From a virus (taxonomy: Duplodnaviria > Heunggongvirae > Uroviricota > Caudoviricetes): 48,133 bases of DNA. Within the stretch, counting starts at the first letter, position 1. Every line of letters begins with the position of its first letter. Made by a program: the position numbers. The stretch lies in IMG/VR virus record IMGVR_UViG_2519899779_000002. One strand, given 5' to 3'. Below, piece by piece: positions 21,001 to 24,000 of the stretch.

Positions 21001-24000
21001 AAAAATGCAACGTATGGCGTTGAGATAGAAAGTCTGGTGCTGGAGATAAATGCACCGGCATCATCATAAAAAGTGAGCCAGTCAAATGGAAGGTATCGTT
21101 AAACTCACCGGTAGTGTCAGTGGGTCGTCTGAGATGCCTGCATGAGTTATCAGAGCCATCAGTACTTAACTGGTGGCTTTTTTTATTGTTGTCAGCTTCC
21201 GGATAACGGGAGACGGGGTATGTACCAGATGGAAAAAATCACAACAGGTGTGTCATACACCACGTCAGCGGTGGGAACGGGCTACTGGTTCCTGCAGTTG
21301 CTGGACAGGGTTTCCCCGTCTCAGTGGGCGGCAATAGGCGTGCTGGGGAGTCTGCTGTTTGGGCTGCTGACATATCTGACTAACCTGTATTTCAAAATCA
21401 GAGAGGACCGTCGTAAGGCGGCGCGGGGGGAGTAAAGCGATGAAGAAAAAATACGAACTGGGTGTTAAAGGGATAAATAATTATCCGGATAAGATTACTG
21501 TTACTGTGGCACTGGAAATTGGTGGGTATCCGTCACTGTTGTTGCCAGATGTGGCGATTAGTCTTGACCGTACTGAAGGTGCCACGCTGGAGTTTTACGA
21601 AGCTGAGGCGAAAAAGCAGGCGAAGCAGTTTTTCATGGATGTTGCTGCCGGGTTATGTGAAGGGAACGAACCGTTGCCGGAAAAGCGCCCCATAATTTTA
21701 GAGGCGCAGGATGTGTTGATAACCTACAAAGGAAAGCTACCGGGAAGAATTACTGGTTCTCTGAAGATGCCGCCGTCAACACTGCGGTCAGAAAAAGAGG
21801 CGTCTTGTCTGCAGTCTGAGTACTCCATTACGGTTAAAAGTGCCGGAGAGGAAGGAAATAAACGTTATTTTATTGCGTCTGCACCTGATAAAGATCAGGA
21901 ATGGGAGTGTAACCGGCCATCCTTTGTTGTATACGGAGATGGCGGGAAAATAACCATCTCAGAAAATGGGAAATTAACACCGCCATCGCACCAGCATAGT
22001 GAGGCGCTCATTGAATTTGCCATTGATTACCTGAAGAACAATAAAAAGCAGGGGCTGATGAAGCGCATTGGTCGTTGCATGGGATATCTGCAGGTAGCAG
22101 CTGAGATTGAAATGATGGCCAGTGGTGCTGACAATGATGCAGTTGTGCTGGAGGCTCTTCTGCGTGATTTTGATAATACGCCCTTTAAGAAAGCACCTGT
22201 TGACTGGATGCAGCCGGGGATGACTTATCTGAAAGGGCGTATATAAGGTGGCTCGTTATCTGTTGCTGGATAATCGACTGAAGATGCGTTCTTTTTGTGT
22301 TTTTGCGTAATGATTGTCCCACTCACAATCAAGGTAGCTTAATTCTTCATTCAACCAGTTATTTATATTGGTCTTAATACGCATAAGCATGGGCTGTGTT
22401 AATGCTCTGGCGATAATGCCGAGAGTCACAGGTGTGAGATGTCCATACGGCTCAGCCTGAATGGATTTTACTGCATCGTGTTCTTGTGGGAGGAGTAAGA
22501 GGCACTCTGATTTTACCCGCTCATTTATGGCTTGCAGGCATAAATCATAATTATGTTGATCGTTATGCATGGTTAATCCTCTACTGAAATTGTCAGATAT
22601 ATTTCAGCCATCAGGAAAAACGCCAGTGTCCTACCGCTGGCGGGCTGAAGATTTAACATATCCAGGGATTCGGAACCGATAAATCCTGATAAATATCCAT
22701 GAACACCAAAATCAAATATGGCCTGTCGGCTGCCGTTCTGGCGTTGATTGCCATCGGTGCGCCTGCGCCTGATATTCTCGACCAGTTTCTGGATGAAAAA
22801 GAAGGTAACCACACAACGGCATACCGTGATGGTGCGGGTATCTGGACCATCTGCCGCGGTGCCACAATGGTGGATGGTAAACCTGTTATTCCGGGCATGA
22901 AACTGTCGAAGGAAAAATGCGACCAGGTTAATGCCATTGAACGGGATAAGGCGCTGGCATGGGTGGAGCGCAATATTAAAGTTCCACTGACCGAACCACA
23001 GAAAGCGGGTATAGCGTCATTCTGTCCCTATAACATTGGCCCCGGTAAGTGTTTCCCGTCGACGTTTTATAAGCGGCTGAATGCTGGTGACCGCAGGGGA
23101 GCGTGTGAGGCGATTCGCTGGTGGATTAAGGACGGTGGCAGAGACTGCCGTATCCGCTCAAATAACTGTTATGGTCAGGTATCCCGTCGTGACCAGGAGA
23201 GCGCGCTGGCGTGCTGGGGAATCGACAGATAAGCAGAATATTTTGCTGAAAAATAAGGTATGGCCACGCGGGCGGATAACACGAAATCCTGCGAACTGGC
23301 GAAACGTAAGTGAATAAAAGTAAAAACCCCGTTTGTTGGCACCAAGCGGGGTTTTGTGTTTCTGACCTTGAGTAAGGCAAGGGAGAACATGGCGAAGTAT
23401 AAACGAATTCTGTTGAGGTTGACTATGAAAAATGGCCTTGAACTGAAAGCGCCTGTAACTGATGACATCAGCAGAGCACTGGCTTTTGCCATTAAGTGGG
23501 TGGCGGTCGGTGTTGCTGTGTTCCCGATGCTGTATGGGCTGGCAAAACTGGTCATTGCGTTGAAATCGTGAAGGGAGGATTAAGCATGTCAGACAAACTC
23601 ATAACGCTGGCGAAGATCCTCTGTGTAATTGTCGGCATTTCATTTTCACTAATGCTGGTTGCTCTTTTTCTTTCCATGGCCTGGATGATGTTGTCTTCGT
23701 CGGGGTTGCTGGGGTGAACATAAACCGAATGCTTTCCGCGTTTATCGTTATTCTGCTGGTGGCCTGTGGTGCGCTGTGGATGGCAACAGACCATTACCGT
23801 GATAACGCGATTACCTACAAAGCGCAGCGCGATAACAAAGCCAGTGAACTGAAGCTGGCGAACGCAACCATTACTGATATGCAGGTGCGCCAGCGCGATG
23901 TTGCTGCGCTCGATGCAAAATACTCGAGGGAATTATCCGATGCGAGAGCTGAAAATGAAACTCTGCGCGCTGATGTTGCCGCTGGTCGTAAGCGCCTGCG

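Follow-up and report, generated by a model that had tools for sequence, protein, structure and literature searches.

In phage lambda the spanin gene Rz follows the endolysin gene R directly, and the question addressed here is what two small open reading frames (ORFs) and a hairpin represent between these genes in IMG/VR record IMGVR_UViG_2519899779_000002, a stretch of 48,133 nt (hereafter the window) that is a complete lambdoid prophage. The ORFs, named orfA and orfB, and the non-coding DNA ahead of them occupy positions 23233-23717, which match the Escherichia coli O104:H4 chromosome at 100%. A first-pass annotation had made the reasonable guess that they encode additional lysis regulators or superinfection-exclusion peptides. 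The lambda arrangement, cited there as established knowledge, is supported by the K-12 prophages DLP12 and Qin, in which R and Rz overlap, with nothing between them and no hairpin. Our analysis suggests that the insert is quite probably made of accessory cassettes, two of them acquired separately, rather than of extra core lysis genes. Taken as a whole, the best explanation is one of moron-like accessory cassettes encoding tail-anchored membrane peptides, gated by the antiterminator Q; this combined reading is tentative and falls a little short of probable.

Two small genes in the gap between R and Rz

The 60- and 43-amino-acid (aa) ORFs had been placed correctly before Rz/Rz1, as their coordinates match genes called by PGAP (Table 1). 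Each had also been credited with a good ribosome-binding site. This holds for orfB, whose strong GGAGG (23574-23578) lies 7 nt ahead of the ATG, and was generous for orfA, whose Shine-Dalgarno-like AGGGAG (23380-23385) lies just 3 nt before its start codon. The single hydrophobic helix assigned to each product is borne out by the best 19-residue Kyte-Doolittle windows, which cover residues 38-56 of orfA (score 2.07) and 11-29 of orfB (2.89). The orfB product is nearly all one transmembrane helix (residues 11-35), and AlphaFold2 models orfA with helices at residues 2-18 and 23-59 (mean predicted local distance difference test of 78.7). Given that the N-terminal 36 residues of orfA, ahead of its C-terminal hydrophobic helix, are basic (8 K/R versus 3 D/E), the peptide is predicted to be tail-anchored in the inner membrane in an N-in orientation, with a cytoplasmic head of about 35 residues.

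Lack of conservation, named earlier as grounds for dismissing the ORFs, is not what was found: both are under purifying selection, and the insert cassette occurs in 2120 of 5426 complete E. coli genomes. When the distinct nucleotide variants of the fetched loci were pooled, pairwise counts yielded a ratio of nonsynonymous to synonymous substitution rates (dN/dS) of 0.21 for orfA (codon bootstrap 0.12-0.32) and 0.37 for orfB (bootstrap 0.22-0.63), compared with about 0.7 to 3.5 in the alternative sense frames. Variable sites of orfA number 18, 12 and 38 at codon positions 1, 2 and 3, and no internal stop is present in the 22 distinct variants of orfA or the 13 of orfB. Each ORF has over 100 relatives in a large protein collection, all labelled hypothetical; those of orfA come from Escherichia and Salmonella, with more distant ones elsewhere, and those of orfB from E. 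coli. The plaque-forming phages PhiR12_1, PhiR12_2 and PhiR12_5 carry the cassette at 93.5% identity. Both ORFs are thus very probably maintained as protein-coding genes for small peptides with a single C-terminal or central hydrophobic helix.

The same data bear on the possibility that the ORFs are type I toxin-like membrane peptides under antisense RNA control, or decaying remnants without function. The products are small, very hydrophobic and shielded from read-through by a terminator, and frameshifted or truncated database copies exist (e.g., P0105, P0113, P0221 and P0233). However, the purifying selection in the sense frame and the wide conservation oppose both versions, and for a toxin there is neither an antisense promoter above chance nor a match to an Rfam antitoxin RNA, which makes this explanation highly improbable. 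The candidate antisense promoter considered over the orfA start (minus strand, 23425-23396) lies in coding sequence and could give rise to an RNA of about 70 nt with its end at the hairpin; it was rejected, its 9-of-12 match being at chance level (7 such sites found versus 7.9 expected).

Neither peptide has a Pfam, NCBIfam or PADLOC match (PADLOC searched with E up to 1). They belong to PHROG families without an assigned function, orfA to phrog_1115 (E 7e-42; phrog_1115/4493) and orfB to phrog_4906 (E 2.1e-23). Kinship between the two was rejected, given that 875 of 2000 shuffles score as well and hhalign gives 3.7%. Protein P0238 (59 aa, from a 554-nt ENA contig) joins a holin N-terminus (MYQMEKITT...SPSQW) to the C-terminal helix of orfA at a short similar stretch, and may be a genuine recombinant or an assembly artefact. 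This chimera prompted a comparison of the orfA helix with holin helix 2, and the idea that one is a copy of the other was also rejected (36 of 2000 shuffles match the 16-residue score; hhalign 4%).

Comparison with related lysis cassettes, proposed earlier as a check, finds orfA and orfB conserved but mosaic in the slot between R and Rz. In a sensitive DNA search against phage records, the region breaks into three independent pieces. The first 155 nt (junction, hairpin and leader) precede other cargo and are present in Salmonella phage SPN3UB; orfB forms the second piece; and the third, orfA, is replaced by ant in 933W and most Shiga toxin (Stx) phages. The commonest architecture among the fetched loci is R-orfA-orfB-Rz. 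Other fillings are R-ant-orfB-Rz, R-45-aa ORF-orfB-Rz, R-orfA-orfB-methylase-Rz, R-45-aa ORF-Rz and R-orfA-Rz, the last found in one E. coli locus and in Salmonella, where the holin belongs to a different family. One or both small genes are missing from close relatives whose R and Rz are the same, and in every locus where orfB was seen it lies within the R-Rz gap, upstream of Rz. The G+C content of the insert is 46-47.5%, versus 53% for R and 55% for Rz. The variable content of the slot and this difference in composition indicate that orfA and orfB are separate, dispensable modules in a recombination hot spot.

Two further variants of these loci were observed. In some IMG/VR loci (L062, L112 and L046) the 3' half of orfA is partly duplicated behind orfB, and this repeat yields long artefactual ORFs (phrog_3246; e.g., P0213) that run through the orfB region out of frame and then into orfA. 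In Salmonella loci L160 and L162 (around 2975-3003), the conserved leader contains an ATG that opens an 8-codon mini-ORF, MCREVCSL, whose stop overlaps the GTG start of orfA (ccctGTGA); on its sequence, this overlap suggests translational coupling instead of the direct start of E. coli. A leader hairpin that would mask the orfA ribosome-binding site (CCTTG-AGTAAGG-CAAGG) was rejected, as it is invariant, and hence uninformative, in close relatives and absent in distant ones.

In 933W and most Stx phages, orfB is found directly 5' of Rz at about 80% nucleotide identity. The codon equivalent to the orfB ATG of the window is ATA in 933W and BP-4795, and the ORF is retained there through an ATG five codons upstream. 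The 933W homolog (locus L155, NC_000924.1, 2483-2632; record positions 27420-27569), MMGWLMISDKLITLVKSLCVLVGISFLVMLVAIFFSTAWRVLTLSGLVG, is absent from the RefSeq annotation, and the homolog is likewise unannotated in most matching Stx-phage records. In O157:H7 Sakai, the orfB homolog XECs191 was reported as a small intergenic gene with ribosome footprints; in LB its transcriptome and translatome values were 30.0 and 12.6 reads per kilobase per million, with a coverage of 0.55 (PMC5597208). A ribosome-profiling paper on EDL933 was rejected as evidence of translation, the orfB homolog EDL933_1392 being merely an annotated control protein there.

The close packing of orfB against Rz raises the alternative that orfB acts mainly in cis, its translation delivering ribosomes to the Rz start and its peptide being incidental. 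The orfB stop codon overlaps GTG 23714 in the Rz frame (GTGA), with an 8-nt gap in relatives, and at 148 of 162 orfB loci the aligned portion of Rz sets in 15-20 nt past the orfB end. The ATG that starts Rz in 933W reads ATA in the window, so that the remaining start options are weaker, and the G-rich 3' end of orfB doubles as the Rz ribosome-binding region. Yet the most conserved part of orfB is its N-terminal 25 codons, far from Rz (dN/dS 0.30), and residues D3, K4, V14, V16, G17, S19 and F20 are invariant. Moreover, orfB is retained where a methylase gene separates it from Rz, and Rz is translated without such an ORF in the K-12 prophages, in Salmonella relatives and in locus L146. A mainly cis-acting role is thus very unlikely.

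The hairpin and its travels with small genes

The strong hairpin and U-run reported after R, at 23327-23361, fall within the terminator-type feature delimited here (Table 1). Its sequence is AAAACCCCGTTTG-TTGGCAC-CAAGCGGGGTTTT, followed by GTGTTTCTG. Six of the 13 stem pairs are G-C, in agreement with the G+C-rich stem-loop of an intrinsic terminator, and a U-run is present, in that the stem ends in TTTT with GTGTTTCTG next; the run is broken, so that efficiency may be partial. In a 76-nt context the RNA folds at -22.1 kcal/mol (z = -3.1), and 1 of 200 shuffles folds as well. The motif AACCCCG-N8-22-CGGGGTT occurs once in the window versus 0 times in 100 shuffles. Ten sequence variants of the hairpin differ in inner stem and loop, and each of them has a folding energy within -13 to -25 kcal/mol; the pairing retained over these different inner stems suggests that the hairpin is under selection. 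A MAFFT/RNAalifold run caught little of this conservation, as the variants misalign. Several more plus-strand terminator-like hairpins exist in the same late operon, one of them directly after Q.

The non-coding junction between R and the hairpin is 75-87% conserved in phages with differing cargo behind it, Salmonella SPN3UB included. It contains a stem-loop, CGGAT-AACACGAA-ATCC, whose loop is near-invariant from E. coli to Salmonella phages, and which in locus L180 stands behind a different, R21-like endolysin. RNAalifold retains this stem, with weak covariation. The 15 nt ahead of it are highly variable and often palindromic (e.g., GTTGGCCAAC, GTGGCGCCAC and GCTCACGTGAGC). A search of positions 20500-26000 against Rfam returned nothing significant, the best hit having an E of 0.58, under the gathering score. 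The known prophage small RNAs (sRNAs), namely the anti-sRNAs AgvB/AsxR and Pas, were rejected as candidates; their published location is from the Q or esterase gene to the holin gene, not after R.

These features invite the explanation that the hairpin is the 3' end of a stable RNA of about 100 nt derived from the R 3' untranslated region, or else a terminator of antisense transcription. For a stable RNA speaks the conservation of the 90 nt before the hairpin over E. coli and Salmonella phages, along with that of the stem-loop and its invariant AACAC(G/A)AA loop; for a minus-strand terminator speaks TTTTTACTTTTATT, which follows the hairpin on the minus strand as a better T-run than that of the plus strand. 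The A-run ahead of the hairpin makes this second version readable. Nevertheless, the region has no Rfam family match and no promoter-like site for such an RNA, the hairpin goes with the small gene in tail-region contexts where the upstream junction is absent, and the sole minus-strand promoter-like site is the chance-level one at 23425-23396. Both versions are quite unlikely.

The tail-region contexts emerged from the wider orfA family. A profile search of 1.84 billion representative proteins yielded 21 small orfA-family proteins, with no holin among the matches; a scan of one-genome-per-species contigs with the orfA profile gave no match. Distant members share the N-terminal motif YKRILxRLTMKNGLExxAPVT followed by a helix, and several end in IRWW. 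Genes of the family follow tail-fibre genes in L163/L164 and L176, stand at the end of the prophage in L172, and in L179 lie between the gene of the major tail protein and that of its chaperone; in L177 the neighbours are an endolysin-like gene on one side and a lipoprotein gene on the other, and in L180 they are an R21-like SAR (signal-arrest-release) endolysin gene and a methylase gene plus Rz. In four lineages the family is found in lysis cassettes, and in four others it is found in tail regions. In L177, the distant orfA homolog is directly followed by a 59-aa ORF with the lipoprotein signal LLTGC (2656-2835), a candidate outer-membrane spanin with no Rz-like partner seen.

Related membrane ORFs of 45 aa, assigned to phrog_6632, occur in Salmonella phage SPN3UB, Actinobacillus phage vB_Apl-pPE4 (between baseplate genes) and E. 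coli locus L165. They resemble orfA in having the same hairpin and leader (TTTCTGACCTTGA.TAAGGCAAGG.AGAA) and a tail-anchored build, and members of the orfA family share their C-terminal endings, IRWW or IVAIKG. However, their N-terminal sequence is different and no significant pairwise similarity exists. Taken together, genes of the orfA family and phrog_6632 occupy tail-fibre, tail-operon and baseplate contexts. The start codons of these related small genes are preceded, in 11 of 13 contexts, by a hairpin that folds at -18 to -23 kcal/mol, has a T-rich tail and ends 28-58 nt upstream of the codon; the two contexts without it have another small ORF directly upstream. In tail regions the hairpin accompanies the small gene without the left junction, and in the tail-fibre context of L163 a terminator is also present after the orfA homolog.

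A bolder generalization would take hairpin, leader and small gene as a mobile moron in which the terminator comes first, encoding late membrane regulators, for example of pinholin or SAR-endolysin timing, in phages of Enterobacteriaceae and Pasteurellaceae. The upstream terminator would keep a potentially harmful tail-anchored peptide dependent on antiterminated late transcription, and the orfA and phrog_6632 peptides would form a new regulator class, with a conserved cytoplasmic head and alternative IRWW or ALKS tails. In this general form the proposal is doubtful.

Expression and candidate roles of the peptides

In the preferred explanation of moron-like, Q-gated cassettes, the first cassette would be a portable unit of non-coding left junction, strong terminator hairpin, leader of about 33 nt and orfA, and the second would be orfB, packed tight against Rz. 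Transcription of both genes would require Q-modified polymerase, to which terminators are no obstacle. In a lysogen, the hairpin would stop unmodified polymerase, leaving the membrane peptides, spanins and packaging genes silent until the late phase. No plus-strand promoter-like site was found in 23233-23586, and within the window no terminator separates orfA/orfB from Rz. The Q-modified polymerase of lambda passes terminators along the entire late operon. Given the lack of a promoter between hairpin and ORFs, the position in the late operon downstream of Q, and this lambda biology, late-only, Q-dependent expression gated by the hairpin appears moderately likely.

Once made, the peptides would reside in the cytoplasmic membrane as dispensable modulators of pinholin triggering or of SAR endolysin release. 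A late, lysis-linked role is favoured by their being membrane peptides within a pinholin/SAR-endolysin cassette, behind a terminator and without a promoter of their own. The late-only expression, the membrane location, the strict position of orfB between R and Rz, and the frequent position of orfA in lysis cassettes led us to propose that they are non-essential tuners of the membrane step of lysis, a proposal that is the best available guess at their function and yet, on balance, rather unlikely.

Several observations weigh against the preferred explanation and its lysis component. Position is the one link of either peptide to the holin, the endolysin or the spanins. Searches of Pfam and NCBIfam reveal no homology with holins or antiholins, and hhalign against the cassette holin gives 4%. 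Genes of the orfA family stand outside lysis cassettes in four lineages, and the slot also carries unrelated cargo (ant and a DNA methylase), which counts against a dedicated lysis role. Regarding selection, the dN/dS values are pooled pairwise counts on related sequences, with no tree-based model, and constraint at the nucleotide level may be added where the 3' end of orfB partly coincides with the ribosome-binding region of Rz. Regarding gating, the U-tract of the hairpin is broken (UUUUGUGUUUCU), and the hairpin is symmetric, with a 5' A-run and a 3' T-run, so that it might serve the minus strand instead. Phages with ant of the 933W type have a weak hairpin in place of the strong one, hence gating is not needed for every cargo of the slot. 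A textbook moron has its promoter upstream and its terminator downstream, whereas the insert shows no promoter and has its terminator upstream. Finally, the XECs191 footprints are weak, come from uninduced cultures, and fit spontaneous induction or low constitutive expression (PMC5597208).

The main rival is that the peptides are superinfection-exclusion or host-directed conversion factors (like HK97 gp15, Cor and Sie) that block DNA entry or another membrane process. Several known exclusion proteins are small inner-membrane peptides. Classic moron sites (after a tail-fibre gene, between the major tail protein gene and that of its chaperone, and at a prophage end) hold orfA-family genes, and the orfB homolog gives a low transcript and footprint signal in uninduced Sakai cultures. 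This rival fits the tail-region sites, and poorly fits the absence of a promoter: a strong terminator precedes the genes and no promoter-like site was found, which argues against expression from a repressed prophage. In addition, there is no PADLOC match and no homology to named exclusion proteins in Pfam, NCBIfam or PHROGs, and for classical exclusion genes the footprints in uninduced cultures are just weak. An exclusion or host-directed role is accordingly regarded as unlikely.

Comparison with known systems leads back to the moron-like cassette. Examples of morons include lambda bor and lom and HK97 gp15. The insert shares with morons the wedging of extra genes between late genes that adjoin each other in relatives, a deviant base composition, a mosaic distribution, and small membrane proteins. 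Unlike the insert, for which late expression only is expected, textbook morons have their own promoter upstream, a terminator downstream, and expression in the lysogen. Thus, two of four defining features (extra DNA and odd composition) are present and two (own promoter and downstream terminator) are absent. The moron concept is that of Juhala et al. 2000, as cited in PMC4104026. The ant cassette of 933W and BP-4795 is the closest parallel in layout, with the same left junction after R and the same right neighbours, orfB and then Rz; it differs in its cargo, a 189-aa soluble antirepressor-like protein, and in its weak hairpin.

Among lysis proteins, P2 LysA is a positional analogue only: a non-essential membrane protein encoded between the endolysin gene K and the lysB/lysC spanin genes, it shifts lysis timing, and is much larger, with several membrane helices. 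Antiholins (lambda S107, phage 21 S71, T4 RI/RIII and P1 LydB), whose genes lie within lysis cassettes or close to them, adjust the timing of holins in or at the membrane. Spanins are no match, given that both orfA and orfB lack a lipobox and have hardly any residues past the helix, and Rz and Rz1 are encoded separately. The releasin of Mu, gp25 (DUF2730), whose gene lies near that of a SAR endolysin, is a small single-pass membrane protein of 99 aa that works from the cytoplasmic side; its helix is N-terminal, in N-out, C-in topology, and its cytoplasmic domain is acidic and 73 aa long (PMC9239132). The build of orfA is the opposite, with a basic N-terminal head, a C-terminal helix and no DUF2730 match. 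Neither orfA nor orfB figures in a survey of 279 Stx phages, which does describe the pinholin/SAR-endolysin/Rz cassette (PMC8136144).

Flanking genes and significance

The late genes of the window lie in one orientation with the Q-family antiterminator gene. Their plus-strand order is Q, three tRNAs, esterase, holin and a DUF1327-family protein, then one minus-strand ORF, followed by R, the insert region, Rz/Rz1 and the terminase genes. Features are listed in Table 1.

Table 1. Coordinates of the insert and of the late-region features around it, in window positions.
Feature	Position	Strand or frame	Remarks
Q-family antiterminator	14942-15283	+	annotated; 5' of the late genes
Holin, class II / phage-21-like, 71 aa	21220-21435	+	MYQMEKITT...RKAARGE
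R, lysozyme, 177 aa	22699-23232	+	left flank of the insert
Left junction, non-coding	23233-23322	+	conserved; holds a small stem-loop at ~23268-23292
Intrinsic-terminator-type hairpin	23323-23367	+	13-bp stem 23323-23355, 7-nt loop, U-rich tail TTTTGTGTTTCTG
orfA, 60 aa	ATG 23389 to TGA 23571	+	matches PGAP WP_001151822.1, hypothetical protein
orfB, 43 aa	ATG 23586 to TGA 23717	+	WP_001280932.1; PGAP hypothetical protein
Rz, i-spanin (inner-membrane subunit)	GTG 23714 or ATG 23729 (PGAP) to 24187	+	right flank of the insert
Rz1, o-spanin (outer-membrane lipoprotein), inside Rz	~23940-24125	+1-frame ORF	lipobox LVVSAC

The identity of the flanking genes is supported by Pfam and PHROGs: R matches PF00959 Phage_lysozyme (E 2.8e-25) and phrog_7 (endolysin; PGAP "lysozyme"), and Rz matches PF03245 Phage_lysis (E 7e-47) and phrog_13 (PGAP "lysis protein", 23729-24187). 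As read from the sequence, the N-terminus of R, MNTKIKYGLSAAVLALIAIGAPAP, resembles a SAR anchor, and R carries an E-x8-D-x5-T motif. PGAP labels the intact holin ORF a partial pseudogene "missing C-terminus". The full-length holin and the SAR-type R give the cassette the appearance of an intact pinholin system.

Other observations concern the surroundings of the insert. Between holin and R lie a 268-aa protein with a DUF1327/YdfR N-terminal domain (21440-22246; phrog_1085, E 9e-160; partial YdfR in PGAP) and a 104-aa ORF on the minus strand (22256-22570; phrog_1853), so that the junction of the holin gene and R is an insertion slot as well. A terminator-like hairpin of 12 bp with a long T-run (21152-21180), located between the genes for esterase and holin, occupies the reported position of Pas and the anti-sRNA genes in prophages of pathogenic E. 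coli; it matches no Rfam family. In the AT-rich gap (41% G+C) between Rz and the terminase genes, a 52-aa ORF with hydrophobic stretches (24520-24678) neighbours a minus-strand YlcI/YnfO-family gene, and PGAP makes a shorter call there (WP_000347013.1, 46 aa, ~24538-24678).

The genes described here are already in databases as hypothetical proteins, and their arrangement is a variant of the accessory inserts found in lambdoid late operons. Its mildly unusual aspect is that a terminator stands in front of the gene and moves with it. The same pinholin/SAR-endolysin cassette serves nearly all Stx phages (PMC8136144). In genomes of the 933W type, orfB ought to be called by annotation pipelines. 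Lysis timing sets burst size and, in Shiga-toxin phages, toxin release. If the peptides do tune lysis, they would be a very common, overlooked component of toxin-phage lysis; if they have no role in lysis, the region would still be a clear recombination hot spot in the lysis cassette, with a design that places the terminator ahead of the gene.

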